Origin: a virus | Taxonomy: Duplodnaviria > Caudoviricetes | DNA length: 41,847 nucleotides | IMG/VR virus record: IMGVR_UViG_3300034388_000042 | Location: 1 to 41,847 of that record | Strand: one strand, 5' to 3' | Part shown: positions 1 to 18,749 of the stretch, piece after piece | Numbering within the stretch: position 1 is the first letter of the stretch | Layout of the letters: each line of letters begins with the position of its first letter | Program-made: the position numbers and the translations under genes | Notes under the pieces: generated by a model | Databases searched by the model: none | What the model saw: only the letters and a program-made list of their open reading frames with translations | Told to the model about the DNA's origin: nothing

Positions 1-73
1 GTAGTGGGGGGTCCCGGTCCCGTCGATGGGGTGCCCCCCTGCCCGTGGCATCGCCGCAGGTCAGAGGCTTGTC

Positions 74-382
74 TCACCATCGGCGCGAGGTGATGAGCAC
101 ATCGATGGGCTTGGACCTGTGCGGTGACCGCTTGCCTCGTGCTGAGTTGCATCGGTGGTGTGCGGCTCGGCAGTTGCTGCGCACGAGCGCCAGCTGTGGT
201 GCCTCATCGACGGGCACCACGTGGTCGAGGGTCCAGGACAGTGGATTGACGCGGCGGGTGGTCGGGTCGCGGTAGGGCAGCGCGCGGTCGATCTGCTGGC
301 CGCACAGCCAGCATGCGCCCTCCTCCCGCCGTACCTGCCGGACCAGCGCCCGGTAGGGGTGGGTGTGCCGAGGGTCGGTCAT
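74..382 (-). CDS. HNH endonuclease, terminase-associated packaging type
   Basis: CWLC...TLDHVVP...SNCRAAHHRCNSARG motif. Last gene before TerS on the circularised map. Start taken as ATG 382. Confidence 0.88.
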   Translation of the reverse strand: MTDPRHTHPYRALVRQVRREEGACWLCGQQIDRALPYRDPTTRRVNPLSWTLDHVVPVDEAPQLALVRSNCRAAHHRCNSARGKRSPHRSKPIDVLITSRRW

Positions 383-393
383 GGCCGGCCCGG

Positions 394-495
394 TCAGAGG
401 GCGGAGTTGAACCTGGCCAGCGCCGCCTCGGGGTCCTGGTCCCCCTCGCACTCGGCACGCTGTACAGCGAGATCGAACTGGGTGGGCTCACCCAT
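394..495 (-). CDS. Small hypothetical protein (33 aa, MGEPTQFDLAVQRAE...)
   Basis: GGGAGG RBS upstream of ATG 495; fills the gap before the HNH gene; below the ORF-track size cutoff. Confidence 0.35.
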   Translation of the reverse strand: MGEPTQFDLAVQRAECEGDQDPEAALARFNSAL

Positions 496-685
496 GGCGC
501 TCACCTCCCGGGCGATGTGCAGCAGCCCCGCCGTGATCCTCGGTCGTGGATCCGCGCTGCAGTGGCGGCGACGGAGGGGCGGGGCTGCTGGTCCGCGAGA
601 CTCCCGCTCACGGTCGGGTCGGCTCGACTCGGTGCCGGGCTCTGCACGTCCCGGTCACGCTGGTGCGTCGGCCGAACTGAGAGAT

Positions 686-1150
686 CTACATGTGGATCTG
701 GCCCTGACGATAGCGCCGTGATGTCGGCGTCTTGCGCATCGGGGTCGCCGTCGGCCTGACGCGGATCGGCGTCTTGATCTCGGGCTCGCCCCATTCCTCG
801 ACCACTGCGGCGATGTACTCGAGCAGGATCGGGCTCGGGTGGTACCACTCGCGGCCGGCGGCCCGATGCGCGCTCAGTTCGGCGTGAATCCGCTGCTCAT
901 CAGCGAGGGTCCCGGGATGGACGGCGAGGATCTCGGCGTTCGGCGGATAGGTGCGCATCCGCTGCGCCAGGTTGCTGGCGTAGCCGACCTTGATGCGGTC
1001 GCCGTTCTGCAGGTAGTAGATCACGCCCTTGGCTGGCCTGGCCTTCGCCTTGGGCCGCTCGGGTGCGGGGATCTCGCCGCCTTCAATGTCGGCGTTCACC
1101 TGGGCCCAGACGTGCAGGGCGTGCTTCTGGCATAACTCCATGCCGGGCAT
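686..1150 (-). CDS. GIY-YIG superfamily T5orf172/MUG113-like protein (5' end possibly frameshifted, see findings)
   Basis: VIYYLQNGDRIKVGYASNLAQRM...EQRIHAEL...GREWY pattern typical of T5orf172-domain proteins. Confidence 0.8.
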   Translation of the reverse strand: MPGMELCQKHALHVWAQVNADIEGGEIPAPERPKAKARPAKGVIYYLQNGDRIKVGYASNLAQRMRTYPPNAEILAVHPGTLADEQRIHAELSAHRAAGREWYHPSPILLEYIAAVVEEWGEPEIKTPIRVRPTATPMRKTPTSRRYRQGQIHM

Positions 1151-1227
1151 GCGGCCCCCATTTCAGTGATCCGCACATGGGCCAGCAGCATCGGGGACGG
1201 CTCATCACGCCGCCCGACAGATCAACG

Positions 1228-1280
1228 ACTCTGGGTGCATTCTGCGTTCGCGCAGGTCAGACGTCAACTCTCGGTGCCTT
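1228..1280 (-). promoter_or_regulatory. Candidate sigma70-type (late) promoter flanked by direct repeats
   Basis: Minus strand TTGACG (1267-1262), 17-nt spacer, CAGAAT (1244-1239). Plus-strand repeats ACTCTGGGTGCATT (1228-1241) and ACTCTCGGTGCCTT (1267-1280). Confidence 0.55.
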
Positions 1281-2139
1281 TCCGGTCGCGTGTCGGGGCA
1301 CCTTCGCGGGCGAGCTTCGACACTGCGGCCACGCTGTAGCAGGGCTGGCCGGCGGGGTTGACGTAAGCCACGGCGAGAGTCTTGCGGTGCGCCCAGCCGC
1401 GGATCATCGCCGCCGTGACGACGCTGGGGCCGAGCATCCTGGCGATGACGACAGCCGGCGCGGCCACGTCGTTGGCGGCCTCGATCATCGCCGCCCGGCT
1501 GACCACCACGTCCCAGCGCTCCCCGCAGTCCCTGCACGTGGTCACCTTCGCATCCGGGTGCGACAGGATCTCGGCGCCGCAGGTGCACCTGCAGACGAGC
1601 ACCATCGGCTGTGGGGCGTCGACGGCCCGCTCGGCGGCGGTGACGGCGTCACGGATCTCCGCAGCAAGGTTGGCGGCCCACGGCCGGCGCCCCAGGTCGC
1701 GGACGTCGGCCAGCAGCAGCGCCTGCCGCGGCGCGGTGGACAGCCGTTGCCGGCGGACGGCGACCAGCCCGGCGACGGCGCGGACGGTGCGGCATGAGTC
1801 GTGCCGGCACCGGGCTGGGCAGACCGGGCCCTCGATCTCGTCGGCCTGCGGGGTCTGCTCGTCCCAGACGCGCGCCCAGCCGTGCACGACGTTCCGGATC
1901 GCGTCTCCGGCCTGCACGGCGCGTTCGTTGAGCGTCAGGCCGCCCTCGTCGCTGGGGCTGCGCGGGCCGGGTTCGCGCCAGCTCGAGCGCAGGCCGGTCG
2001 CAGTGGCGTCGAGCTCGACGAGCAGGCCGGGCACGGCGCGCAGGTTGCCGCGGGTGCGGCCGATGCACCCGCGGCAGATCACTTCCCCGGCCCCGAGCAC
2101 CTGATCGCAGCCGTCCAGCGGGCACGGGCGGTCGGTCAA
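1264..2139 (-). CDS. Zn-finger plus C-terminal HTH protein, putative late transcription regulator
   Basis: Cys pairs (CPLDGC, ICRGC, CRCTC, TCRDC) and C-terminal HTH-like VTAAMIRGWAHR. GGAGG RBS and TTG start overlapping the upstream stop. Typical right-end position. Confidence 0.65.
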   Translation of the reverse strand: MTDRPCPLDGCDQVLGAGEVICRGCIGRTRGNLRAVPGLLVELDATATGLRSSWREPGPRSPSDEGGLTLNERAVQAGDAIRNVVHGWARVWDEQTPQADEIEGPVCPARCRHDSCRTVRAVAGLVAVRRQRLSTAPRQALLLADVRDLGRRPWAANLAAEIRDAVTAAERAVDAPQPMVLVCRCTCGAEILSHPDAKVTTCRDCGERWDVVVSRAAMIEAANDVAAPAVVIARMLGPSVVTAAMIRGWAHRKTLAVAYVNPAGQPCYSVAAVSKLAREGAPTRDRKGTES

Positions 2140-3461
2140 CAGGGCCTCCGTCGCAGGGATCCGGACTGCTCCAGGTCGGCCCGGGTCGCACCGCATCCGG
2201 AGCATGGCGTCCACTCGCCGCCGGCTCGCAGGCGGTCCATGTCGAAGCTGTGGACGCAGGAGTCCCGCGGGTCGGTCACGGGCGGGCGGTCGGCCTCCTC
2301 CATGTGATCGGCGGAAACGAGCCCGAGGGCGCCGATCAGGAAGCTCGCCATCAGCCGATCGGTGTCGCCGAGGGCAGTGGCGAGCAGGTGGCGCAACCGC
2401 TCGACCTCGTCGATCCGGAACGCAGCGCCCACGACACGTGCCACGCGCTCGGCGTCGTACGCGGTCAGGTGCTCGACGTCGAGGGCGGCGATGCCGTCCC
2501 CGATCGCGGTGACGGTGGCCTCGCGGGTGCCGCGCAAGCGCTCAGCCTCGGCGACCAGGCCCTCGACGTCGGCCCGCAGCCGCTCCACCTCGGCGCGCGC
2601 CTCGCCGCGCTGCTGGTTGACCACGATGCCGTCGCGCAGGGCCTTCTGCAGGGCGGCGCGGACGCTGTCCAGCTCGGCGTGTGCATGGTCGAGCGCGGTG
2701 GCCAGCTTGCGGGCCGCGGCACGGGTGTCGTGGTGCTCGCGCTCGACCTTCGCCAGCTTCTCGCGGGCGATCCCGAGGTCACCCAGCGCCTGCAGCATCT
2801 TGCGGCCGTTGCGGTCGGGGTCGATCTCGTCGAGCACGATCACCCAGATGCCGAGCCGAGGGTGCCGGGAGACGCCCGGCCCGTGGTGGTACATCGCATG
2901 GTCGCGGATCGACTCGGGGATCTCGGCGCCGGTGCGCACGACGACGTGCCCGGTGGGCTCGCCGGGTATCGCCCGGTCGAGCGGGTGCACGCCGGTCGGC
3001 CGGTGTTGGCCGCGCACCTGGTCGAGCCGCTCCCGCACGTCGTCCAGGGCCACGCGGTAGGGCTCAGGGATGGCGGGTGCGGTCCGCTCGGCGTAGGCGG
3101 CCTCGCAGCCGCCGAGGCACGTGCAGCAGCCGCCACAGGGCTCGGGGTTCGCGGACGGGCCGCCGCAGTCATTCCCGGCCTCGCACTTGCCGAGGGGGCA
3201 TTCGTGGCCCTTGGCGCGGGCCGGCGCGGGCGTCCAGGTGAACTCCCGCGTGCCGCGCCCATCCTTGGCGATCTCCACGCGCCGGCCGTCGGCCAGGTCG
3301 AGGGTCAGGCAGGCGTGGGGGCCCGCCGCGCCTGGCGGCTCGTAGTCGAACGCCTCGACGTCGCCCGGGGTGATGCCCAGCTCGGCGCACGTGGTGCTGA
3401 CGGCGGTCAGGTGCCGCTCGACCATCGCGGCGTGCTCGTCGTCGCTGATGACGGGGGTCAT
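2136..3461 (-). CDS. Mosaic hypothetical protein with Cys cluster and coiled-coil segments
   Basis: ATGA overlap at 3458-3461; CGGCCTCLGGC cluster; repeated EVERLR heptads. Confidence 0.55.
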   Translation of the reverse strand: MTPVISDDEHAAMVERHLTAVSTTCAELGITPGDVEAFDYEPPGAAGPHACLTLDLADGRRVEIAKDGRGTREFTWTPAPARAKGHECPLGKCEAGNDCGGPSANPEPCGGCCTCLGGCEAAYAERTAPAIPEPYRVALDDVRERLDQVRGQHRPTGVHPLDRAIPGEPTGHVVVRTGAEIPESIRDHAMYHHGPGVSRHPRLGIWVIVLDEIDPDRNGRKMLQALGDLGIAREKLAKVEREHHDTRAAARKLATALDHAHAELDSVRAALQKALRDGIVVNQQRGEARAEVERLRADVEGLVAEAERLRGTREATVTAIGDGIAALDVEHLTAYDAERVARVVGAAFRIDEVERLRHLLATALGDTDRLMASFLIGALGLVSADHMEEADRPPVTDPRDSCVHSFDMDRLRAGGEWTPCSGCGATRADLEQSGSLRRRPC

Positions 3462-3673
3462 CGGGCCCACCTCACGAACTCGGAGCCTCCGGGACCGGCC
3501 GGGCTCACCTCGGGGACGGGGCTGGCGGCGGGCGCGCTCGCTGTGGGCGACGGGGACGGCGTGGGCACCTGGACGGGGGCGGGGCCGGAGTCGCGGGCGC
3601 CCAGCAGCAGTGCAGCCACGGCGATCGCGAGGGCGACCAGGGCCAGGTGGGCCAGGGAGCGGGCGGGGGTCAC
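3458..3673 (-). CDS. Small membrane-anchored hypothetical protein
   Basis: GTGA overlap; hydrophobic LAHLALVALAIAVAALLLG followed by a Pro/Ser-rich tail. Confidence 0.5.
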   Translation of the reverse strand: MTPARSLAHLALVALAIAVAALLLGARDSGPAPVQVPTPSPSPTASAPAASPVPEVSPAGPGGSEFVRWAR

Positions 3674-3963
3674 TGGTCGCCTCGCAGGTACGCCTCGAGC
3701 ACGCGGGCGGTCCCGAGAACGTCGCCTTCGGAGAAACCGGCCCACAGGCGCGCGGCGGCCTGGAGCGCCTCGACGCGGTACGGGTCGGGGGCGGGATCGG
3801 GGCGGCTGCCGCCGGACGGGCCGCGCGGCGGGGTGCGGGGCGCCTCGTCGCGGTTGGCCCAGCGGTACTCGCCACGCGAGTGATCTCCGGCGTGGTTGAC
3901 GGGCCGGTCGCACGACGCGACCGTGAGCGCGTTGGGGTGCGGCGCGGCGCAGTCGGCGATCAT
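3670..3963 (-). CDS. Hypothetical protein
   Basis: Coupled stop/start overlaps on both sides; C-terminal helical segment. Confidence 0.55.
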   Translation of the reverse strand: MIADCAAPHPNALTVASCDRPVNHAGDHSRGEYRWANRDEAPRTPPRGPSGGSRPDPAPDPYRVEALQAAARLWAGFSEGDVLGTARVLEAYLRGDQ

Positions 3964-4520
3964 CGGTTCTTCCTTCCCTGAGCCGCGGCGTGCATCGCTC
4001 GCAGCTCGGCCTGTGCCGCGTGCAGGTCCCGCTCGGCGAGGTCGGCGCGCTGTGCCTCGATGCGGAGGGACCGGCCGAGGGAGGCCACGAAGTCGGCGTC
4101 ACGCCAGCCGGCGAGGTCGAGCAGGGCGCGGGTGGCCGCGCCCTGCTCGAGCGTCAGCGTCGGCACCGAGTCCGCGGCGAGCCGGAGCGTCGCTGAGCGG
4201 GCGATGGGGGCGAGGTCGCGGTCACCGACCACGATCCGCGCATCCATGCCGCCGCGGTGCCAGGTGATCCAGGCGCCCTCATCGCCGATCTCGCGGGGCG
4301 GCGTGAGGACCTCGTGCACTCGGCGGACGCAGCGCTCGGCGGGCGTCTCGGGTGCGATGTCGCCCGCCGCCTCGTCGGGCAGCGTGGCGGCGAACTCGCG
4401 GATCCGCTCGGCGACGTCGGCCGGCAACATCGGACGCACCCAGGTCTCGCCTTCGGCGGCGGCGTCGAGCCGGCGGGCGAGTTCGGCGAGGGCCTCGCGG
4501 GCGGTGGGGGCGGCGGTCAT
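3960..4520 (-). CDS. Hypothetical protein
   Basis: ATGA overlap at 4517-4520; high-GC3 coding style. Confidence 0.55.
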   Translation of the reverse strand: MTAAPTAREALAELARRLDAAAEGETWVRPMLPADVAERIREFAATLPDEAAGDIAPETPAERCVRRVHEVLTPPREIGDEGAWITWHRGGMDARIVVGDRDLAPIARSATLRLAADSVPTLTLEQGAATRALLDLAGWRDADFVASLGRSLRIEAQRADLAERDLHAAQAELRAMHAAAQGRKNR

Positions 4521-4753
4521 CGCGGGCCGTCCTGGGCGGCGATCGCGGCCCGGACGAGGCAATCCTTGGCCTCCAGAAGCTTCCGCAGGCCGGTGGTCAA
4601 TTCGGGGCCGTCGGGGAGTTGGGCGACGAGCGAGTGGGCGGCCGCGAAGCAGTCCCCGGCCACGGAACGGGGCAGGCCCTCGGGTAGGTGGCCGAAGTCG
4701 AACCAGCGAAGGATCTGCTGGGTGGCGGGGTGGCGGGGCTGGTCGGTGGTCAT
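4517..4753 (-). CDS. Small helical-hairpin phage protein, candidate Acb2/Tad1-like nucleotide sponge
   Basis: ILRWFDFGHLP...LPDGPELTTGLRKLLEAKDCLVRAA, a conserved-looking two-helix phage protein; function inferred only. Confidence 0.5.
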   Translation of the reverse strand: MTTDQPRHPATQQILRWFDFGHLPEGLPRSVAGDCFAAAHSLVAQLPDGPELTTGLRKLLEAKDCLVRAAIAAQDGPR

Positions 4754-5145
4754 GCGGTCTCCCGGGCTTCGATCTGGTTGGGGCGGCGGAACAGGTCCAC
4801 GACTCGCTGTGCGAGCTCGCCGTTGGGCACGAGGACGTCGCATGGCTCGTCGGCGTGGTGGACGGCCTTGCAGTCGGGGCAAATCCGGCCGTGCTCGCAC
4901 GGACGGGTGAGCTCGGCTTCGGCAGCCTCCGCGTCGGTCTGGGTGCGGCACAGCTGCCACAGGTGGCCGGGCTTGAGCCGGACGTCGGGCATGCGGCGGT
5001 AGTGCTGGCGCATCGCGGCCAGGGCGGTCTCGAAGTCGAGCGCGCCGAGCATGTCGTGCCAGACGAGGACGTCAGCGTCTCCGACGGTGCGCTGGTCGCA
5101 GGCTGCGGCGTAGCTGAGCAGGTCGACGACCTGGGCGCGGTTCAT
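4750..5145 (-). CDS. Putative helicase loader/inhibitor (G39P-like), partner of the initiator
   Basis: Directly after the initiator; LLSYAAACDQRT...VWHDMLG..DFETALAAMRQHY..P pattern. Confidence 0.6.
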   Translation of the reverse strand: MNRAQVVDLLSYAAACDQRTVGDADVLVWHDMLGALDFETALAAMRQHYRRMPDVRLKPGHLWQLCRTQTDAEAAEAELTRPCEHGRICPDCKAVHHADEPCDVLVPNGELAQRVVDLFRRPNQIEARETA

Positions 5146-6098
5146 GCGGGGTTTCCTCCGATCGCGAGGTGGGTGACGGTGGCCAGACCTGCGGCTTCGG
5201 CCTGGTCGAGGGCTTCGTACTTGGCGCGCAGGGACTGCGCCGCGGCGACGCGATCGTCGGTGGTGGAGCGGCGGCCGGCACGCGCCTGGCGGCGGTCGTC
5301 GATGCGGCGCTGTTCCTCGATGGCCCAGTTCCGCCAGGTGAGATCCCAGCGGATTTTCCGGCCGTCTTTCCCGGGTTTCGCCAGCCAGTGGTTCCGGAAT
5401 TTCTCCACGTCTACCCATCCGACATCCGGGGCATTCTTGCGGGTCCATTCGATGAGCTGGGGATCGGGTTGCCAATTCTCGGGAATTCGGGTGCCCCGAT
5501 CGGGGGACGCCTCGCGTGCGGGCGCGCGTGTCGCGCGCGTCTTAACCCCCCCGGAGGGGGGGTAAGAAGCTTTCTCAACCACAGATGGGTTAGGGCAAAG
5601 GGCGTGTCCGGCCGGGCCGGACGGTTCGCCGACGGTTGGGCGACGGTTGGCCCCTGAACCGTCCGGTGGGGCCGGACGGTTGGAGACGTCCGAACCGTCG
5701 GCGAACCGTCCGGTGGGACCGGACGGTTCAGGGGCCGAACCGTCCGGTGGGGCCGGACGGTTCAACCGTCCGGTGGGGCCGGACGGTTGGCCGTCGCCGA
5801 GGAGGCGCCAGACCGTGCGACGACGACCCCTGAGGGACATCTTCGCGACCAGCGCCGGACGCTGGGCAGTAGCCTTTTCGAGGCGTCCGAGAATCTCGGC
5901 GCACGACGATCGATGCATTCCCGTCCATTCCGCGATGACGTCATAGCCCGGCCCCGACTTCCAATCGAATGCGTCGCAGGCCAGGCAGAGCAGGACCAAC
6001 TTCTCCGCCGGCGTCATGCCGTACTCCCTGGGGAGTGAGGTGACCCATGCGACGGCCGGGCGGGGTCCATCGATCTCGATGCCGGCACCGCTCCCCAT
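5142..6098 (-). CDS. Replication initiator (lambda O-like architecture)
   Basis: N-terminal winged HTH (AEKLVLLCLA...YDVIAEWTGMHRSS), central iteron-encoded repeats, C-terminal IPENWQPD...KFRNHW...WDLTWRNW domain. Confidence 0.8.
   Translation of the reverse strand: MGSGAGIEIDGPRPAVAWVTSLPREYGMTPAEKLVLLCLACDAFDWKSGPGYDVIAEWTGMHRSSCAEILGRLEKATAQRPALVAKMSLRGRRRTVWRLLGDGQPSGPTGRLNRPAPPDGSAPEPSGPTGRFADGSDVSNRPAPPDGSGANRRPTVGEPSGPAGHALCPNPSVVEKASYPPSGGVKTRATRAPAREASPDRGTRIPENWQPDPQLIEWTRKNAPDVGWVDVEKFRNHWLAKPGKDGRKIRWDLTWRNWAIEEQRRIDDRRQARAGRRSTTDDRVAAAQSLRAKYEALDQAEAAGLATVTHLAIGGNPA
5606..5788. repeat. Iteron array, putative replication origin
   Basis: Four copies of palindromic AACCGTCCGG-TGGG(G/A)-CCGGACGGTT at 5657-5681, 5704-5728, 5738-5762 and 5764-5788, plus a partial copy at 5606-5626, all inside the initiator gene. 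Confidence 0.85.
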
Positions 6099-6204
6099 TG
6101 CTCAGGCTCCGCCTTCCCCTGGTCGCATCTGGTCCCGCACTTCAGCCGCCACCGCCACGCCCCGCACACCGGACAGCGGTCGATCCGGCGGTCCCGCACG
6201 GGTC

Positions 6205-6624
6205 TCACGGCGGCTCCCAGTCGTCCGGCAGGCCCATGCGTCGGTTGGCCGCGAGCCGGCTGACCATGCGCTGGTAGGGGCCGCGCAGGTCGTCCGGGTC
6301 GTCCTGGCGGCGCAGCGCGGACTCGATCGCGGATGCGGTGGTCCCGAGCCGCTCGACGATCTGCGGCGGCGTCAGTCCCTGCGCGGTCAGGGCCTGCACG
6401 AGCCGGGCTGTCTCGGCGGTGGTGCGCCGCGCGCCGCGCGACTGCGGTGGGGGTGCGGCCGGCGTCTGCCGGTACCGGGCCTCCCGCTGCGCGCGTAGCG
6501 CCCCCACGTCCTGGGCGAGCCTCGCGCGCCACTGCTGGCGGACGCGCCAGGGCAGGTGCGGCCAGTGCTGGGCGACCGCCGGCGGCACGCCGGGCGGTGG
6601 GCTGCCGGTGGTCGGGGCGGTCAC
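6205..6624 (-). CDS. Putative HTH DNA-binding protein
   Basis: LTAQGLTPPQIVERLGTTASAIESALRR is HTH-like; GTGA overlap start. Confidence 0.55.
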   Translation of the reverse strand: MTAPTTGSPPPGVPPAVAQHWPHLPWRVRQQWRARLAQDVGALRAQREARYRQTPAAPPPQSRGARRTTAETARLVQALTAQGLTPPQIVERLGTTASAIESALRRQDDPDDLRGPYQRMVSRLAANRRMGLPDDWEPP

Positions 6625-6875
6625 GCTGGTCTCCTCTCGCTGGGCAGCTCGGCGGGCAGGTGCACGGTCTCGACACGCCGCCCGCGCACCGTGGCAGCGA
6701 CGACGCGGGCGGCGACCAGGCGCAGGCGGGAGCCGCGGCAGCGTGCGTGGCGCGGCCCGTGGGTCCACAGGCGGCCGGCGAGGGTGAGGCAGTGCGTGTG
6801 CCAGCAGACGGGGCAGACGACCTCGCCGCGGCCGGTGACGATGGCCAACTGGTCGGTGTGCGGGACGGCCCTCAC
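6621..6875 (-). CDS. Small Cys/His-containing hypothetical protein
   Basis: CPVC...H...CRGS; coupled overlaps on both sides. Confidence 0.5.
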   Translation of the reverse strand: MRAVPHTDQLAIVTGRGEVVCPVCWHTHCLTLAGRLWTHGPRHARCRGSRLRLVAARVVAATVRGRRVETVHLPAELPSERRPA

Positions 6876-7501
6876 GCGGTCTCACCGCCCAGGGGCAACT
6901 CCGGGTGCGCCAGGGCGCGCTCCCAGGCGAGGACGTCGGGCAGGCGGCGGTCGGGGTACTTGGCGAGGATGGTGCCGTCCGCCGTGGTGGCGCCCATGCT
7001 GCGGGCGATCCGGAGCCGGCGCAGGCTGTTCACGCGGCCCATGTGCACCCGCTTCCCGCGCGCGACCGCTTCGCCCGCAAGTCGGCGTGCGTGCGGCCCG
7101 AGCTTCCAGGTGGTGTCGCCGCCGATGAAGAGGACGTCGAACGCGTTCCACGGCACGGTGAGTTGCTCCAGGCCGTTCTGCGCGACGAACGCGGCCGGGT
7201 AGCCGAGGGCCCGGATCGCGGGCAGCCAGGGTGCCGAGCGCTCCCAGGTGGCGGCGGCGTCGGCGACGACATCCGGGGCGACGGCGAACAGGCACAGGGC
7301 GGGGTCTGCTCGGTGCCCCGAGAGCCAGTGCATCCACGCACGCTCGCCGGGGTAGCCGGCGCCGAAGCACCCGTTGTCGAGGGCGTAGGGCACGCCGTCC
7401 GGCACGACATTGCCCTGCGCTGGGGTGTCGATGGCTCCGGGCCAGCCGGCGCGCATCGCGGCCCTGATGCGCTCGGTGCTCGGGTTGCCGAGCCACAGCA
7501 C
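6872..7501 (-). CDS. TGT/DpdA-like (tRNA-guanine transglycosylase fold) protein
   Basis: Ordered motifs LDNGCF, APDV, VAQNG, LFIGG, VHMGRVN and ADGT match the TGT-like TIM-barrel pattern; GTG start at 7501. Confidence 0.6.
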   Translation of the reverse strand: MLWLGNPSTERIRAAMRAGWPGAIDTPAQGNVVPDGVPYALDNGCFGAGYPGERAWMHWLSGHRADPALCLFAVAPDVVADAAATWERSAPWLPAIRALGYPAAFVAQNGLEQLTVPWNAFDVLFIGGDTTWKLGPHARRLAGEAVARGKRVHMGRVNSLRRLRIARSMGATTADGTILAKYPDRRLPDVLAWERALAHPELPLGGETA

Positions 7502-7505
7502 GTCA

Positions 7506-7739
7506 TCACCCCGCACCCCCCGTGCCGGGCCCGGGTGGCGCTTCCCCACGCTCACCCGGGCCCGGCGTCTGGGCGCGCCGCTGTGCCCGCTGGTCCTCGA
7601 CCTGCTGCCGGAACCAGGGGGCGGCGCGGCGGTGGTGGCACGTGCAGTCGCAGAAACCGCCCGTGCAGTGGTGGTCTCGGTTGGGGCGCCCCTCGCGGGC
7701 GGCCTTCGCGCAGTTGGGGGTCAGCAGGCTCACGGGCAC
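7506..7739 (-). CDS. Small Cys/His-rich hypothetical protein
   Basis: GAGGAG RBS; C...HHCTGGFCDCTCHH motif. Confidence 0.55.
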   Translation of the reverse strand: MPVSLLTPNCAKAAREGRPNRDHHCTGGFCDCTCHHRRAAPWFRQQVEDQRAQRRAQTPGPGERGEAPPGPGTGGAG

Positions 7740-7811
7740 CTCCTCGGTCGCTTGATGGTCAGGAGGACGGCGGCCGGGCCACGGGCCATCGGGCCCGGCC
7801 GCCGACGGTCG

Positions 7812-8063
7812 TCAGTCCTGGGGCTTGGCCGCGGCCTTGACCTCGGCGCTGCGGTCCCGGCTGGCGTTCATCGACGTCCCGATGAAGTAGCCGTCCGAGT
7901 CCTTGACGCTGACCTGGACGTACGCGCTGCCGTTCTCGCCGGGCTCCACGTGGTGCCCCGAGACGATGATCGTGCCGAGCGGGATGCGCTGCAGTGCCGC
8001 CTCGCTGACGGGCTCCAGGCGGACTCCGTCGGCGTCGTGGGTGATGGTGAGCGAGTAGCTCAT
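7812..8063 (-). CDS. Hypothetical protein
   Basis: GAAGGGA RBS; 9-bp hairpin CCGGACGCC/GGCGTCCGG at about 8093-8114 upstream. Confidence 0.65.
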   Translation of the reverse strand: MSYSLTITHDADGVRLEPVSEAALQRIPLGTIIVSGHHVEPGENGSAYVQVSVKDSDGYFIGTSMNASRDRSAEVKAAAKPQD

Positions 8064-8197
8064 CGCGTGGTGCTTCCCTTCGGTGGTGGTGTCCGGACGC
8101 CGGTCGGCGTCCGGGTGGTCTTGTCAGGCGCAGGTCACCACGGGGGCATGCCGTGGTTGCGGACGCAGTGCTTGCACGGTGCGGACTCGGCGCACGT

Positions 8198-8392
8198 TCA
8201 CTTGCCGCACTTGGGCCCGTCGGGGCAGTCGTCGTCTGGCTCGTCCTCGCCCTGGTCGCCGTCCTCGTGCTCGGCGGCGAGCAGCTCCAGGTCGGTCGCG
8301 GCGTCAGCGGCCGCGCAGTGGACCTCGTGGGCGAAGCGCTCCAAGATGCGCAGGGCCTTCGCGGCCATCTCGATGTCGCTGCGGGCGCTCAA
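8198..8392 (-). CDS. Small acidic protein, possibly truncated by an in-frame TGA (frame continues to 8135)
   Basis: TTGA overlap start; ends CPDGPKCGK* with the Cys motif continuing past the stop. Confidence 0.45.
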   Translation of the reverse strand: MSARSDIEMAAKALRILERFAHEVHCAAADAATDLELLAAEHEDGDQGEDEPDDDCPDGPKCGK

Positions 8393-8676
8393 GGCGTGCC
8401 CCACCGGGCGATAAGCGCGACCGCGGCCAGCGCGAGGTTGCGCCAGCTGGTCTCGGCGAGGACGGCGCGGCCGTCGTCCAGCACGACGAGCAGGGACGCG
8501 GACGGCGCCCCGCCCGTCATCCCGTGCGGAAGGACGCCGATCCTGGACAGCTGGCCACGTAGCGGGTTGCTGCCCAGGTACGGCGCCCACGCGCCGTCCC
8601 GAATCTGCAGATCGACCGCCAGGACGGTCCCCTGCGGGTCCTCCGGGTATCGGCCCGGACCGAACTCGACGGGCAC
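8389..8676 (-). CDS. Hypothetical protein
   Basis: AGGAGG RBS before GTG 8676; GMTGGAPSASLLVVLDDGRAVLAETS beta-rich pattern. Confidence 0.6.
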   Translation of the reverse strand: MPVEFGPGRYPEDPQGTVLAVDLQIRDGAWAPYLGSNPLRGQLSRIGVLPHGMTGGAPSASLLVVLDDGRAVLAETSWRNLALAAVALIARWGTP

Positions 8677-8677
8677 G

Positions 8678-9445
8678 TCAGGCCTCCTGCAGGCGCTTGC
8701 CGGCGAACCGATCGAGCCACAGCTGCCGGGCCCGAGCGCGCTTGCTGAGCGAGTCGTCATCGTCGTGACCGGACGAGATGAGGCCGAGGAACGAGGGCCC
8801 GCACTCGACCACGAACGCCCGGGAGTCAGCCGAGCCCGAGGGCACGGTCGTCAGCGGCGTCTCGTACAGCTTCGACGCTGGCAGGAACCGGGCCTGGGCT
8901 TGGCCCGGGGCCGTCAAGGGCTTCGGTGAGGGTGTCTTCTGCGCGTCGAGCAGGGCGCGGTGCACGATGCCCCACACGTCCGGGAAGCCCTCGGCATCCG
9001 GGGGTGCGGTCATCACGTAGGCGTCGCCGTCCATCAGGCCGCCGACGTCAGTGGCGGTCAGGGCGCCGTCCTCGACGTCCAGCTGCAGCATGGCCATCCC
9101 GTCGTCGCCCTTGGCGGGGAAGGCCCCCAGGATCCGGGCGGCGTGCTGCGGCAGGATGTCGGCGACCGCCGGGCCGGTCTTGCCGTCGTCGCTGGACATC
9201 CCGGCGTCGAGCAGGTCCATCTGTCCGCCGTCGGAGCGCAGCAGGGGCGCGACGGCGACCGCGCTGGTCGCGATGCACGTCGCCATGACGCGGACGTAGC
9301 CGGCGGCCGGGTCGAAGTAGAGCCGGACGCGACGCAGTGCCTGCGTGCCGTCGCCGCCGGTCTTGGTCTTGTCGGCGTGCCGGCGCACGGCGTCGAGCGC
9401 CTTGCGGAACTCCGGCGTGCTGACACGGTAGGTGCCCACGGTCAT
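8678..9445 (-). CDS. Sliding clamp (DnaN)-like phage protein
   Basis: EFRKALDAVRRHA...ALRRVRL...VMAT and GFPDVWGIV resemble beta-clamp-like phage proteins; GAGGG RBS before ATG 9445. Confidence 0.45.
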   Translation of the reverse strand: MTVGTYRVSTPEFRKALDAVRRHADKTKTGGDGTQALRRVRLYFDPAAGYVRVMATCIATSAVAVAPLLRSDGGQMDLLDAGMSSDDGKTGPAVADILPQHAARILGAFPAKGDDGMAMLQLDVEDGALTATDVGGLMDGDAYVMTAPPDAEGFPDVWGIVHRALLDAQKTPSPKPLTAPGQAQARFLPASKLYETPLTTVPSGSADSRAFVVECGPSFLGLISSGHDDDDSLSKRARARQLWLDRFAGKRLQEA

Positions 9446-9453
9446 CTGATCCC

Positions 9454-10086
9454 TCACTTCGCGGTGGTGGTAACCGGCAGCGACGAGGCGCCGCAGGGGT
9501 TGGTGTACAGCGGCACCTTCGCCTCGGTGGCCTTGGCCACCTGCCGCTCCCACGCCTGGATGCACAGCGCCTGCACCTGCTGCGGAGTGAGAAGGAGAAT
9601 CTGGCCGGACGGCGGGGGTGCCTCGACGAGGCGCCAGACGCGGACGATCAGACCGGGCAGGGTGAGCGGCTGGGCGACGCCCTGCCCGCACCAGTCCTTC
9701 GCCGCGTACAGCTCGACGACTTGGGCGTCGTCGCGCCAGACCTGCGCCTCGGTGAGGGCGTCCATCACGGCTCGGGCCAGCTTGTCGACGTCGCCGGTGG
9801 TGCCCTGGCCGGTGGGCCAGGTGGGTCGCGTCCTCGGGTGGCTGGGCGGACGGGTGAAGCCGAACGCGAGGGCGAGGCGGATCGGTCCGATGAGTGGCTG
9901 CCACGAGAAGTCGCCGAACAGGGCGACCTTCGCGGCCTGGACGACGGAGCGGCGCCAGGGCTTGAGCGCCTTGTCGTTGTCATCCAGCAGGATGGGCTTG
10001 CCGCCGCGTGACCGGCCGATCCGCTTGCTGCCCTGCGGGATCGGCAAGCCGGCTACCCGGAACCGGAGTATGGGCGCCGCGCTCAT
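9454..10086 (-). CDS. rusA: RusA-like Holliday junction resolvase
   Basis: GLPIPQGSK...WR...GDVDKLARAVMDALT..VWRDDAQVV..K catalytic motifs. Confidence 0.9.
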   Translation of the reverse strand: MSAAPILRFRVAGLPIPQGSKRIGRSRGGKPILLDDNDKALKPWRRSVVQAAKVALFGDFSWQPLIGPIRLALAFGFTRPPSHPRTRPTWPTGQGTTGDVDKLARAVMDALTEAQVWRDDAQVVELYAAKDWCGQGVAQPLTLPGLIVRVWRLVEAPPPSGQILLLTPQQVQALCIQAWERQVAKATEAKVPLYTNPCGASSLPVTTTAK

Positions 10087-10172
10087 GCCGGCCACCCGCT
10101 CACCCAGCCGGCCGCCCACAGTGCGGCGGCGCCGACGAGGGCGACCAGGACGGCCAGAGCCAGGCGCGTCAT
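10083..10172 (-). CDS. Tiny hydrophobic protein (29 aa)
   Basis: MTRLALAVLVALVGAAALWAAGW; ATGA overlaps at both ends. Confidence 0.45.
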   Translation of the reverse strand: MTRLALAVLVALVGAAALWAAGWVSGWPA

Positions 10173-10360
10173 CTGGGCACCCTCGGGACCGGGACGCGGG
10201 CCGGCTCGGGCGGCAGGTGCGCCGACCGGCGGGCCTCGACTCGCGCCCAGGCGCGCTGGGCGCCGGCCTCCAGCTCGGCCGTGACGGCGACCGCGGCGAC
10301 GATGGCCAGGCCCAGGAGGGCGACCGCGGCGGCCCAGGTGAGGGCCTGGTGGCGGGTCAT
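10169..10360 (-). CDS. Small membrane protein
   Basis: MTRHQALTWAAAVALLGLAIVAAVAV; ATGA overlaps. Confidence 0.5.
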   Translation of the reverse strand: MTRHQALTWAAAVALLGLAIVAAVAVTAELEAGAQRAWARVEARRSAHLPPEPARVPVPRVPR

Positions 10361-11697
10361 GCCTGGCCCGCCTCGTCCGCGGGCCACTCGGGCGACCAGT
10401 GGTCGCCACCCACCGTCGGGTCGGGCAGCTGCTCGTCGCCGTCCTGCGGCTCTGCAGCGGGCGGCGTCCAGGGCTGGCCGGTGGCTGCCTCGTCGGCCGC
10501 CGCGGCGTCCTCCAGGGCGCCGCCGTCGTCCTGACCCTGGCCCTGGAAGAAGTGCTCCTCCAGTGCGGCGCGGGCAACCTCCCCGGCGGAGCCCGCGGGC
10601 GCTGACCTGTCGAGGCCCAGCGCGGCAGCGACGACCCGGGCGCCGGCCTCGCCCGCCAGGTTGTCGAGGATGAGGTGCCCCTCGGCGGTGGTGAGCGACT
10701 CGGGGCCCTTCACCTCGTGCTCGACGATCGCGGCCATGACGGCGCGGCGCTTCTCCGTCTGCCCTGGGCCGGTCAGGTGCAGCTCGTTGAACCGGCGGTT
10801 GATCGCCGCCCAGCCCTTCATCGGCAAGGCCTCGTCGGCTGGCGCCGGCGCCGGCGGAGCGGCCGGCTGAGGCGCGGGCACGGGCTGGGCGGCGGGTGCC
10901 GGACCGATGATGTCCTCGGCCGTGATCGTCGCCGCAGGGAACTCGTCCTCCACCGTGATCTCGCCGCGCTTGATGCTCTGCCAGATCACCGACAGCGTGG
11001 CGAGATCCTGCGGCGTCCACTGGCCGGTCGGGTGACCGATCCGGCTCTCCAGCCGCTCACGGGAGATCCGCATCTCGTCGAACAGCCGCACGCAGTCCTT
11101 GACCCGCTCGTCGAGCGGCTTGCCGTTGCCGCGCTGCAGGGTCGCGGTGCACAGGTCGATGGCCTCCTGCACGTACCACTGCGGCAGCAGGCCGAGGATC
11201 ATCTCGCGCAGGCGTCGCGCGCCGTTGTTGGCGTTGTTCTCGTAGATGTCCCGCAGGTCCGTCAGGTCCCTGCGGCCCTTCTTGGTGTCGCGGGCGTGCG
11301 GCACGATGAAGGCGGTGGCGTTGCGGGTGTTGGTCTGCACGTCCCAGGCCATCGCCTGCATCTCGGACTGGCCGGCGCCGTCGTCGCGCCGCAGCTCGGC
11401 AATGCCGTTCTGGAAGTTCCCCCAGCACCGGGCCAGCTCGCGGGCGAGGTGGATGGACGGGCCCGTGACCATGCCGTCGCCGCGGTTGTACCGGTAGAAC
11501 GCGCGCTCGGCCAGGCGCGGCTGCTGGCACGAACGGCGCATCTCGTCGAGCGCGGCCTTTACGTTGCGCGGGCAGGCCTGCGCGACCTGGACGGCGGCCA
11601 TCACCTCGGCGACGGCCCGGGACTGCTCGACGACCGTGGCCTGCCCGATCCTGCTCGGGCCCTGCACGGGCTCCAGGTGCTGCACGTCGACGGTCAT
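10357..11697 (-). CDS. Putative single-strand annealing recombinase, partner of the RecE-like exonuclease
   Basis: Coupled to the exonuclease; EQSRAVAEV..AV.VA..PR...GPSIHLARELARCWGN family motif; low-complexity C-terminal tail. Confidence 0.6.
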   Translation of the reverse strand: MTVDVQHLEPVQGPSRIGQATVVEQSRAVAEVMAAVQVAQACPRNVKAALDEMRRSCQQPRLAERAFYRYNRGDGMVTGPSIHLARELARCWGNFQNGIAELRRDDGAGQSEMQAMAWDVQTNTRNATAFIVPHARDTKKGRRDLTDLRDIYENNANNGARRLREMILGLLPQWYVQEAIDLCTATLQRGNGKPLDERVKDCVRLFDEMRISRERLESRIGHPTGQWTPQDLATLSVIWQSIKRGEITVEDEFPAATITAEDIIGPAPAAQPVPAPQPAAPPAPAPADEALPMKGWAAINRRFNELHLTGPGQTEKRRAVMAAIVEHEVKGPESLTTAEGHLILDNLAGEAGARVVAAALGLDRSAPAGSAGEVARAALEEHFFQGQGQDDGGALEDAAAADEAATGQPWTPPAAEPQDGDEQLPDPTVGGDHWSPEWPADEAGQA

Positions 11698-15611: not shown

Positions 15612-15830
15612 TCAGGGGCTGGCGGTGCGGCGCAGCGCGCGGATGGTGGCCCGGTCGCCGCCGGTGACGATCCGATGGCGTCGCTGCTCGGTGCGTCGGC
15701 GGACGGCGACTGCGCGGCGGACGGCGCGGTACTCCTCGCCGGCGGGGCGACGCTGCAGGTCGCCCCAGGTCTGACCCTCGAGCAGGGCGGCCGCAAAGTG
15801 GTGCTGGTCACGGTGCGATATGGCGTTCAT
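15612..15830 (-). CDS. Small basic hypothetical protein coupled to the Cas7-like gene
   Basis: ATG 15830 overlaps the TGA of the upstream gene; Arg-rich. Confidence 0.4.
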   Translation of the reverse strand: MNAISHRDQHHFAAALLEGQTWGDLQRRPAGEEYRAVRRAVAVRRRTEQRRHRIVTGGDRATIRALRRTASP

Positions 15831-16501
15831 GCCGGCACCTGGTCCCAGCGGGTCACCGTGTAGCGACCGAAGCCCTGTGAGCGGGTGGCGCCGATGCCCT
15901 GCTGCTCGCCGGTGAGCCAGATCATGGCCCACTGCTCCGCGGTGAAGTCGTGGTCACTCAGGATCGTGAAGTTGACCTTCGCGTCCTCGACGTACTCCTC
16001 GTACTGGATCCCGGACCCGCGGAATGTGTGCACGAACCGCTGATTGATCCCGGACGCCGCATCGACGCCGAAATGAAGCCGATCCTCGACGACGCATACA
16101 TGCTCGGCGATATAGCCGAGCAGACCCTTGTTGGTCTTCCCCCAGGACTTCAGCGGCAGTTTCCCGGCGGCGGCGGCGACGGAGGCGGCCTCCTTGATGG
16201 CAGCCTTGAGCTGGCGGCCCTCAATGTAGAGGCCCTGTTCGTCACGCTTGAAGCCGTTCAGGTGCTTCTGCGTGTCGACGATCGCTGCGGCCTCTTCGGC
16301 GGTGACACCGCGCTCGGCCATCGTTTCGGCGACGGCCTGCCGGATCAGATCGTCGGGGTCGGCGAGCTTGGTGCGCAGCCAGCCTTCGGCGACCTTGGGG
16401 TCGGTGGGGATGCCGCCCGCGATGCATCCGATGTGGAGCTGGCCGGCGAACCGGTAGGGCCAGGCTCGGTCACGGAATTCGGCGAAAGCTGACGTGATCA
16501 C
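15827..16501 (-). CDS. Stand-alone Cas7/RAMP-like protein (224 aa)
   Basis: GAAAGGA RBS and GTG 16501. RAMP hallmarks: N-terminal strand then IAGGIP, LYIEGRQLKAAIKEAA helix, YEEYV, and C-terminal glycine loop GIGATRSQGFGRY. Confidence 0.8.
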   Translation of the reverse strand: MITSAFAEFRDRAWPYRFAGQLHIGCIAGGIPTDPKVAEGWLRTKLADPDDLIRQAVAETMAERGVTAEEAAAIVDTQKHLNGFKRDEQGLYIEGRQLKAAIKEAASVAAAAGKLPLKSWGKTNKGLLGYIAEHVCVVEDRLHFGVDAASGINQRFVHTFRGSGIQYEEYVEDAKVNFTILSDHDFTAEQWAMIWLTGEQQGIGATRSQGFGRYTVTRWDQVPA

Positions 16502-16521
16502 TGCGGTCCTTTCGGTGGGAT

Positions 16522-16998
16522 GTCGGGATGGGAGGGGCGTGTGCAGGAGTGGGGTGACTCGGCTCGGCAGGTCGGCCGGGGGGTGGCATGGCAGGTCTCG
16601 GGTCGGATCGTCGGGGCGGGACGGTTGGGGCAGGGGCGGGTAGGAAGGGGTCGTCGGGACGGGCGCGGGCGGGCTGGGTGGGCCTGTCGGGTGCGGGAGG
16701 CGTCGGGCGGGGGTGGGCGGTCCAGGGAGGTCGGACGGGGGCGGGGGGTTAAGCCGGGCAGTCGAGTGGGGTTGGCATGACGCGGGACGGGGCGGAGCGG
16801 ATTGGGTCGTCGGCGCGGAGCGGATCGGCTTGGGCACGGGTTGGGCCGGGCGGTCGGGCCGGGGCTGAGGGCGGATGGGGTCGGGACGACGCGTCGGGGA
16901 GGGCCGATGGGGGTTGGATCGGGCTGGGCGAGGGTGGCTAGTCGGGCAGGCGCAGAAAGGAGTGGCACGGCGACGGAACAGGGGGGGGTGGGTAGTCA
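16522..16998 (-). repeat. Pentamer-periodic array of about 11 units, CCGAC-NNN-(CCNNN)n, candidate guide-RNA array
   Basis: Unit boundaries (plus-strand GTCG) at 16522, 16571, 16610, 16653, 16686, 16730, 16761, 16809, 16853, 16893, 16941 and GTCA at 16995. Example unit: gac ccaat ccgct ccgcc ccgtc ccgcg tcatg ccaac cccac tcgac. Confidence 0.85.
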
Positions 16999-17520
16999 TC
17001 CGGTGATCGACCGCCGGAGTTCGGCGATCCGCTGCTCGTCGAAGCGGTCCCGGACGCGGCCGGTGCCGACCTGCTTGGCGATGGCGCGGAAGAACGCCGC
17101 TTCGAGCCGGGCTGACTTCGCGTCCGCGTCGTACTCGCTGGCCACGTACAGCAGCTCGGGTTTGAGCAGATCCCCGAGCGGCTTGCGGGTCTGCTGCTCG
17201 TCGACCACGTACCGGACGGCGAGGAATTCGCCGACGTCGCCGCGGTCACCGGCGTCCGCGAACGCTGACCGGGCGATACCCCGCCGGGCGGCACCCCGGG
17301 CGGACCGGTCGATCTGGCCGAGCGCCTCCCGGACGAAGCTCGTAGCGCCTAGGTCGAGCCAGCCAGAGAGCAGGCCGGGGTCGGTGGCGCGCAACTTCGC
17401 AACAATCCTGGCCGCGACGACCGGTGCTGCGTCGCCTACCTGCATCTCCGCGTCGAGGATGACGCGCATCTCCGCGGCGTAGTCGCGCTCGTGGGTCTCG
17501 GGGACCGGGAGCGCGGTCAT
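16996..17520 (-). CDS. Unknown helical protein directly upstream of the array
   Basis: ATGA overlap with the HTH gene; its TGA forms the first array boundary (TGAC). Confidence 0.7.
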   Translation of the reverse strand: MTALPVPETHERDYAAEMRVILDAEMQVGDAAPVVAARIVAKLRATDPGLLSGWLDLGATSFVREALGQIDRSARGAARRGIARSAFADAGDRGDVGEFLAVRYVVDEQQTRKPLGDLLKPELLYVASEYDADAKSARLEAAFFRAIAKQVGTGRVRDRFDEQRIAELRRSITG

Positions 17521-17792
17521 GCCGACGCCTTGCGCTGGACTCCGGCGAGCCAGGCGACGTCGCAACCGGTGGCGTGAGAGATGGCCTCACAGGCGGAGAT
17601 CAGGTTGCGGGGCGTGCGGCCCCGTTCCCACTCGCTCCAGGTGACCTGGGCGATTCCGCAGGTGACGGCGGCCTTCTTCATGTTCCACCCCATGCGCTGC
17701 CGCACGAGGGCCAGCCGGGCACCGAACGTCGAGGCGTCGGCTACCCAGGCCTCCTCATCGGGAGTCGTGCACTGCATCGGTTGGGATGTCAT
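17517..17792 (-). CDS. XRE-family HTH regulator in the Cro position
   Basis: FGARLALVRQRMGWNMKKAAVTCGIAQVTWSEWERG...TGCDVAWL; first gene of the early operon. Confidence 0.85.
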   Translation of the reverse strand: MTSQPMQCTTPDEEAWVADASTFGARLALVRQRMGWNMKKAAVTCGIAQVTWSEWERGRTPRNLISACEAISHATGCDVAWLAGVQRKASA

Positions 17793-17798
17793 AGGTGA

Positions 17799-17879
17799 GT
17801 TCTACCTGCTCACGCACAGTCGTGTCAAGCACGAGTAAACTGCGTGCTATTGACCAACACTCGTGTGATGCGCGACGGT
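17799..17879. promoter_or_regulatory. Divergent promoter/operator region (genetic switch)
   Basis: Minus strand TTGACA (17828-17823), 18 nt, TAGAAC (17804-17799). Plus strand TTGACC (17850-17855), 18 nt, GACGGT. Both ATGs lie ~6 nt downstream (leaderless style). Several CACG/CGTG inverted repeats. Confidence 0.6.
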
Positions 17880-17885
17880 TGGCGC

Positions 17886-17945
17886 ATGACCATACAACCG
17901 GCTGAGCGTGGCTGGATCCCCAGCGACGATGCATTCGGGGCACGA
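17886..17945 (+). pseudogene. N-terminal stub of the immunity repressor
   Basis: MTIQPAERGWIPSDDAFGAR aligns with MTSQP...WVADASTFGAR of the divergent HTH gene; similarity then stops before the HTH. Confidence 0.7.
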
Positions 17946-18008
17946 GGCCGGCTGCAGTCGTCCAGGCGACGGCCAGATGCGGGGCGCGCTCTCGCAGGGC
18001 ATCCAGGG

Positions 18009-18152
18009 TCACGAGCGGCCACCGGACATCCGGACGCCGAGGGCGCACCCGATGACGATCAGGGTGGCACCGGCGGGCAGGCCGCGCGCCAGGAGTTCCT
18101 CCTGGTAGGCGAGCAGATCATCGACGTCCTGCATGACCTGCGCGGTGCTCAT
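18009..18152 (-). CDS. Small hypothetical protein (47 aa)
   Basis: GAGAGGA RBS; ATGA overlap; MSTAQVMQDVDDLLAYQEELLARGL. Confidence 0.45.
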   Translation of the reverse strand: MSTAQVMQDVDDLLAYQEELLARGLPAGATLIVIGCALGVRMSGGRS

Positions 18153-18442
18153 GGCGTCCTCTCAGTGCTGCGGTCGTCGCCGGCCTGGGTGCGCCAGCGG
18201 CGGACGGTACGGGGATCGACGCCGAACATCTCGGCGCCGATCCGGTCGATCTCCCCGGGCTCGAGCAACCCGGCGTCGACCTGCCGGCGGGCCCACGCCA
18301 TCCGCGTCTCGTGAGGGTGGCGCGCCTGCGGGTCCACCGGCTCACGGTCTGGATGCGGAGGCAGTTTCCCGGGAGCGGCCAGGGGCCTGACCAGGGGGGC
18401 AGCGGGCCGCAGCGGACCGGCCTGGACATCGGGGGTGGACAT
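18149..18442 (-). CDS. Small HTH protein
   Basis: IGAEMFGVDPRTVRRWR recognition-helix motif. Confidence 0.5.
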   Translation of the reverse strand: MSTPDVQAGPLRPAAPLVRPLAAPGKLPPHPDREPVDPQARHPHETRMAWARRQVDAGLLEPGEIDRIGAEMFGVDPRTVRRWRTQAGDDRSTERTP

Positions 18443-18538
18443 CCGGTCCCCGGTGTCCGGGTCATCGGCGTCTGTGCCCTCTGGGCTGGGGGAATCGTGC
18501 TCGCACCAGCGATGTCCACCCATCCTGCAGGCGATGCC

Positions 18539-18712
18539 CAGTTCCCTGCCGGCCAGGTACACCTCGGACCAGTCGAGGCCCGCGATCTCGGCGGCGCGCA
18601 GGCCGGCGAACGCGCCGAGGGCCAGCAGGGCGCGCATCGCGTCGTCGGCACTGTCCAGGGCGATGGACAGCGCCTCGTCGGTGATGGGCCGGGGCAGGAG
18701 CCGTGGGGTCTT
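18539..18712 (-). pseudogene. Tyrosine integrase fragment (box I only)
   Basis: KTPRLLPRPITDEAL...ALLALGAFAGLRAAEIAGLDWSEV. No N-terminal domain, HxxR or catalytic Tyr seen. Confidence 0.8.
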
Positions 18713-18749
18713 CGAGCTCGGCCTCTGACCGGGGCCCAAACGCACGAGA

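Follow-up and report, generated by a model that had tools for sequence, protein, structure and literature searches.

What does a siphophage do with a lone RAMP gene that stands directly behind an array of five-nucleotide repeats? The window analysed here is a whole virus record of 41,847 bases with siphophage head, tail and replication genes; on its minus strand an HTH gene is followed, without gaps, by a 174-aa gene, then the array, then the 224-aa RAMP gene (Table 1). In the reading that we favour, to which we give about two chances in three, a Vipr-type RAMP protein with a partner and 13 units built of five-base steps would guide the silencing of rival mobile elements on DNA. What we observe are the fold of the protein, its homology to Vipr, the structure of the array and the decoded sequence matches.

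Table 1. Features of the putative guide-RNA locus, with positions in the window
Feature	Positions	Strand	Basis
vipr, 224-aa single-RRM RAMP (Cas7/Csm3-like) with G-loop	15827..16501	-	Model, Foldseek, hhalign
Ribosome-binding-site-like motif of vipr, right after the last GAC of the array	16507..16513	-	Sequence
Putative guide array, 13 units GAC-NN-(ccC-NN)n-ccC of 13-54 nt, without structured tail	16510..16997	-	Sequence, shuffles
Intact 9-NN unit, target not found	16525..16573	-	Genome scans
Intact 8-NN unit, target not found	16613..16655	-	Genome and IMG/VR scans
Intact 9-NN unit, target not found	16764..16811	-	Genome and IMG/VR scans
Intact 8-NN unit, target not found	16812..16855	-	IMG/VR scan, self-match search
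Putative guide unit, 9 NN; predicted target, catalytic-tyrosine codons of a tyrosine-integrase family	16896..16943	-	Decoded matches
Partner gene in the vap position, 174 aa	16996..17520	-	Conserved upstream of vipr
Cro/cI-like HTH gene, first of the operon	17517..17792	-	Pfam HTH_31 (E 3e-7), PHROG repressor (E 2e-18)

The original prediction, made from the letters alone, named a 224-aa protein with two RAMP motifs, and both motifs are present in the gene. The predicted RAMP fold was borne out by an AF2 model (pLDDT 79.8), for which the best Foldseek matches in the PDB are chains of type III and type VII CRISPR complexes (E 8.6e-7, TM ~0.5; 98 matches at E up to 0.001), with no Vipr structure among these matches to compete with them. 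Uncharacterised viral proteins are structurally nearer to the model, with TM up to 0.69. The protein thus models as a Csm3/Cas7-type RAMP with an RRM core and a G-loop. Searches of Pfam, PHROGs, PADLOC and PDB sequences with the protein gave no match, and a single-sequence comparison with the Vipr of Escherichia phage SUSP1 was not significant; when a profile of 117 clade sequences was compared with one of 110 SUSP1-family sequences by hhalign, the match reached 92.3% (E 5.5e-7, 159 columns), with 24% identity in aligned columns. We collected 1,654 homologues. Two of them (L007:57-806 and L035:4001-4774) match in two parts, which suggests an insertion around residue 87-90. A cultured phage recorded from Microcystis (PP395641.1, 37713-38459) encodes a homologue at 36% identity and carries a few units of this kind, all of it annotated as hypothetical.

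A homologue of the partner gene stands upstream of vipr in 40 of the 46 loci with full flanks, duplicates counted. Its product is mostly helical in an AF2 model (pLDDT 90.9, pTM 0.58), with no PDB match at Z 5 or more and no known fold or family; an hhalign comparison with SUSP1 vap1, against one sequence only, gave 0.4%.

The periodic array stood up to analysis, with small corrections to its predicted make-up of about 11 units of 31-54 nt: on the coding strand we count 13 units and a terminal GAC, running from the stop of the upstream gene to the ribosome-binding site of vipr. Eight units are cleanly in phase and five are short or out of phase or broken. Identity at lag 5 is 0.484, compared with 0.386 ± 0.017 in dinucleotide shuffles, none of which reached it in 500, and the 300-nt stretch with the best period-5 signal in the 41.8-kb genome starts at 16551. 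Of the delimiter first read as CCGAC, the constant part is GAC, the preceding CC being the end of the previous step. Nor is each step a CC with three variable bases: across 61 steps from eight hand-picked in-phase units, C occupies the scaffold positions at 57%, 80% and 97%, and just two positions are near-uniform. Each step is therefore c-c-C followed by two free bases, and the same profile recurs in 455 units from 64 loci, under a unit filter that itself demands the third C. The RNA of the array folds worse than 100 of 100 shuffles (z +2.37) and has no Rfam match.

Adjacent periodic arrays, as expected of homologues, were found in 39 of 43 distinct homologue loci examined with 1 kb on either side; the array lies on the vipr strand in 38, on the other strand only in one, and four have none by the filter. 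One homologous phage also carries a 1.2-kb array about 33 kb from its vipr (L202:524-1738). The absence of other cas genes and CRISPR repeats held as well: none of the 20 largest repeat families of the window forms a CRISPR-type array, and none of the 44 ORFs scanned matches a PADLOC Cas model.

An initial target search, in the flanks alone, stayed at shuffle level, with no enrichment. The units were decoded under skips of 0-3 bases. Against 107 vipr genes the guides gave 3/367 strong matches at a 1-nt skip, all in codon frame with the skip on the wobble base; skips of 0, 2 and 3 gave none, and 40 rounds of shuffling gave one. Against 5.8 Mb of loci and phage contigs, searched on both strands, there were 3/322 strong matches (two in vipr genes and one in a terminase Walker-A region), none at other skips and none in 20 shuffle rounds; a weaker tier of matches was at shuffle level (7 versus 1-7). 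In all six target-bearing guides the matching begins at the NN directly after GAC, and one homologue guide (L053) matches up to the next GAC (24/24), so the units appear to be separate guides, as the original prediction had it. A test for overdispersion of codon orientation was discarded: its value was reached in 41 of 1,000 within-locus shuffles, and it was seen in other frames too.

The vipr gene of this phage is itself matched by guides of rivals, 16/16 by L046 and 23/24 by L053. Carriers mostly mismatch their own vipr copy (14/16, 14/18), the exception being the L100 guide, which matches its own at 14/14. The homologues' guides are predicted to target rival vipr genes and a terminase. The terminase case is a homologue guide at L158:12592 that matches 18/18 with Walker-A-like codons in a gene of another phage (L194:18719), judged by eye to be terminase-like.

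One guide of the window has a predicted target. Decoded with a 1-nt skip, unit 16896-16943 agreed in 17/18 positions at 19 places, spread over 17 of the 401 Actinomycetes genomes searched; its reversed-pattern control matched at 0 places in the 401. Seventeen of the places encode the integrase motif LGHxDPGFTLRVYxH in wobble alignment, which we take to include the catalytic tyrosine of tyrosine integrases, and two are unrelated. One integrase place is in an unpublished genome (G047), on which no claim rests. Among 18 ORFs scanned, 12 score above the Phage_integrase cut-off, four are motif-bearing fragments and two are the unrelated ones. Every integrase site has the same mismatch (Ser in the guide, Thr in the target), with no 18/18 integrase match found, and the skipped positions vary across 16 sites. 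A 2-nt-skip version found no match in 191 genomes, six of which the 1-nt version matched. The 17 integrase sites are one gene family and so count as one event, not 17. The phage's own best match to the unit is 14/18.

We examined the neighbourhoods of seven targets, scanning 43 of their 97 predicted ORFs. Four of the seven have the integrase together with RepSA or Prim-Pol and FtsK Tra; of the others, one is without an identified Rep and two were barely scanned. In the available text of PMC3218068, a tyrosine integrase with RepSA or Prim-Pol and an FtsK Tra defines actinomycete integrative conjugative elements (AICEs), and by this gene content some of the target elements are AICEs. A relaxed IMG/VR scan added three integrases, in a 35-kb provirus, an 11-kb record and a 10-kb head-gene fragment; a RepSA search of three viral records gave no match, and neither did its controls. 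The 11-kb record (G436; 1-11371) encodes an integrase, a primase-like protein, capsid, portal, protease and terminase, and no tail gene was matched in it. Capsid-forming satellites (cfPICI) have an integrase, a primase and their own head genes but no tail or holin, according to the part of PMC10085698 available to us, and the 11-kb fragment fits this in the 9 of its 11 ORFs scanned, making it a candidate for a capsid-forming satellite of actinomycetes. By gene content, then, the carriers of this integrase family include a prophage and a satellite-like element alongside conjugative elements.

This guide is the only one of five window guides tested at scale that has a target. Exact IMG/VR scans with four guides gave 3, 7, 3 and 41 matches, unrelated or within a single family and off-context, which we ascribe to chance. 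Against Actinomycetes, unit 16764-16811 gave 0/186, unit 16525-16573 gave 0/401 exactly and 0/191 at one mismatch, and unit 16613-16655 gave 9/186 versus 16 control matches. A self-match of unit 16812-16855 in the prohead protease gene (15/16) was rejected, since it does not fall on the wobble frame and 5 of 300 shuffles did as well. These guides do not converge on integrase-bearing elements.

Matches to double-stranded DNA cannot reveal which RNA strand is the guide. The C-rich strand is probably the guide RNA, because in 30 of 33 arrays it runs the same way as every identified neighbour, because it puts a near-invariant pyrimidine directly before NN and because the residues that read G in SUSP1 are replaced. 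SUSP1 requires Y in that position and excludes purines, as given in the available text of 10.64898/2026.04.26.720927. In a distant profile alignment at 24% identity, its G-readers D177, W178 and R138 are not kept in the clade but align to A205 (A in 112 of 117), S/T206 and E168, and R179 of its pyrimidine pocket aligns to an invariant R207. It is unlikely, in our judgement, that the same system is guided instead by the opposite, G-rich strand (G-g-g-NN) as an NNNGG or NNNNG variant. Every tested vrRNA is G-based and NNNGG, YNNNG and NNNNG variants are on record (10.64898/2026.04.26.720920), the DNA matches are strand-blind and the array of one homologous locus is inverted; such a guide would nevertheless call for an antisense promoter at almost all loci, place the excluded purine in the third position and do without the G-contact residues. 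In the locus with the inverted array (L086:3699-3941), moreover, the array lies downstream of vipr, beyond a hairpin that looks by eye like a terminator. Less probable again is a complex that binds or cuts RNA as Csm3 does, through a conserved Asp34. The type III and VII structures among the best PDB matches, the retention of Asp34 in 108 of 117 clade sequences and the pairing of five of the six target-bearing guides with mRNA, given a C-rich guide strand, all speak for RNA; yet those structures had no Vipr to compete with, the L100 guide matches the other strand, the make-up of the free bases agrees with codon positions 1-2 in either orientation (r 0.76), and the Vipr that has been tested binds DNA (10.64898/2026.04.26.720920).

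The locus could also be VIPR-like with an array in decay and an integrase match that is a relic or an accident, which we think quite improbable. The mismatch at all integrase sites, four guides without a target and five short or out-of-phase units would suit such decay, but neither vipr nor vap is damaged, and eight of the units keep their phase. The background for this pattern is only two unrelated places in 401 genomes, and by a rough estimate the chance that any of five guides would hit catalytic codons of a mobile-element gene in wobble alignment is about 1 in 1,000 or less. Least credible of all is the code first proposed, in which a CC scaffold and three read bases pair with a contiguous target. 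The base after NN is C in only 57% of steps, as a read base might be; we reject this code because that base does not track the skipped target base, agreeing at best in 4/11, 5/7, 5/7, 4/8 and 5/6 positions across five homologue guides and the window guide.

Silencing on DNA by C-rich guides, the reading we prefer, can be spelled out by analogy with SUSP1. The C-rich strand of the operon would be transcribed, the transcript carrying the guides; one Vipr subunit would cover each step, burying the c-c-C triplet and presenting NN for pairing with double-stranded DNA, every third base being skipped; and the filament bound to DNA would block transcription. Each GAC would reset the register and open a new guide. 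Unit 16896-16943 would silence the tyrosine-integrase family at its catalytic codons, and a resident satellite, prophage or conjugative element would thus be unable to excise during infection. At a catalytic, wobble-aligned site, synonymous change would offer no escape.

The locus probably works like VIPR and fits that class as broadly defined, but is not type II. It is a viral, non-CRISPR, minimal locus with a gene in the vap position; its RAMP, with RRM core and G-loop, is homologous to a characterised Vipr; and its repeats are 5-nt steps of a fixed triplet and NN, here c-c-C-NN, with a wobble-aligned 1-nt skip found computationally. VIPR repeats are described as GGY 'or a related consensus' with NN (10.64898/2026.04.26.720920), and the distinct C-based variant that was foreseen agrees with Vipr-family homology combined with c-c-C in place of GGY. 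The type II system of SUSP1, as far as the available texts describe it (10.64898/2026.04.26.720920, 10.64898/2026.04.26.720927, 10.64898/2026.10.15.759431), is likewise a phage-borne lone RAMP with one partner gene, and shares the 5-nt steps of three fixed and two free bases, the 1-nt wobble skip, an array on the vipr strand and, as predicted for the clade, recombinase active-site codons and rival vipr genes as targets; in the text seen of 10.64898/2026.10.15.759431, it silences a satellite recombinase at active-site codons. The scaffold differs (c-c-C here, G-G-Y in SUSP1), along with the G-reading residues, and neither strand of the window array has a run of four steps of the type II consensus YNNGG (GGY-NN), which SUSP1 has. 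SUSP1 makes four RNAs of 9-16 steps with a structured 3' pseudoknot tail, whereas here 13 GAC-delimited units of up to 10 steps abut directly, in RNA less structured than its shuffles. Relatedness of the two partners is not detectable in the single-sequence comparison above.

Other VIPR types also show abutting guides, register shifts and a relaxed consensus, and their NNNGG and NNNNG are reverse complements of the clade's pattern (available parts of 10.64898/2026.04.26.720920, including figs S17-S18), so this clade may have been typed already, within I-VII and perhaps from its opposite strand. Non-canonical VIPR-like clusters (GAC/NN, CAC/NN and others) have non-GGY triplets, two of those named ending in C, beside Vipr-like folds; their triplet repeats about ten times, whereas GAC here only opens a unit, and the accessible text of 10.64898/2026.10.21.760802 gives neither targets nor a skip rule for them. 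With the Csm3/Cas7 backbone of class 1 CRISPR-Cas the locus has in common a RAMP fold with G-loop; unlike class 1 systems it has a 5-nt gapped code, with no CRISPR array or other cas gene found. Neither a c-c-C scaffold with GAC punctuation nor a conjugative-element target is described in the VIPR literature text available to us, figures and data sets aside, and the string 'Actino' has 0 occurrences in the available text of 10.64898/2026.10.15.759431.

More tentatively, the clade could be a separate actinophage VIPR type, in which the reading of G has given way to that of a single C, tail-less GAC-punctuated arrays are cut by Vipr itself (through the conserved Asp34) or read uncut, and one guide silences an integrase family common to satellites, prophages and conjugative elements; if so, the phage would have broad control over host gene transfer. 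Class 1 CRISPR effectors are proposed to descend from VIPR, whose tested examples are G-based and come from Proteobacteria phages. By apparently retaining the gapped code with another scaffold letter and without the tail, the clade would show which parts of the code are fixed, and it would offer multiplexed guides of 30-50 nt for GC-rich hosts. With the decoded integrase site, conjugative elements join the predicted VIPR targets, and a ready, falsifiable test is at hand. What is gained over the published class is this decoded, testable target and a residue-level argument for a C-based strand.

The host of the phage is probably an actinomycete, because among cultured phages those of Gordonia, Mycobacterium and Rhodococcus come nearest to it in DNA (~65%) and the named close homologues of Vipr are from Nocardiopsis, Streptomyces and Pseudonocardia. 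The HTH gene is phage context, its membership in the VIPR-like system being only putative; no sigma-70 promoter site was found. In one public run, possibly the source sample, contigs spanning 16475-16625 and 16881-17030 show zero substitutions. Next to the operon, the immunity region at 17844-18745 looks broken: a plus-strand stretch near 17887 starts, by eye, like the N-terminus of the HTH gene and then diverges, and 18149-18745 holds only a short integrase-like piece (PHROG E 4e-4) and a C-terminal HTH, with no whole integrase among the phage ORFs scanned. Elsewhere in the window, five 26-nt direct repeats lie iteron-like within the replication initiator gene (5601-5788), where their arrangement marks a likely replication origin.
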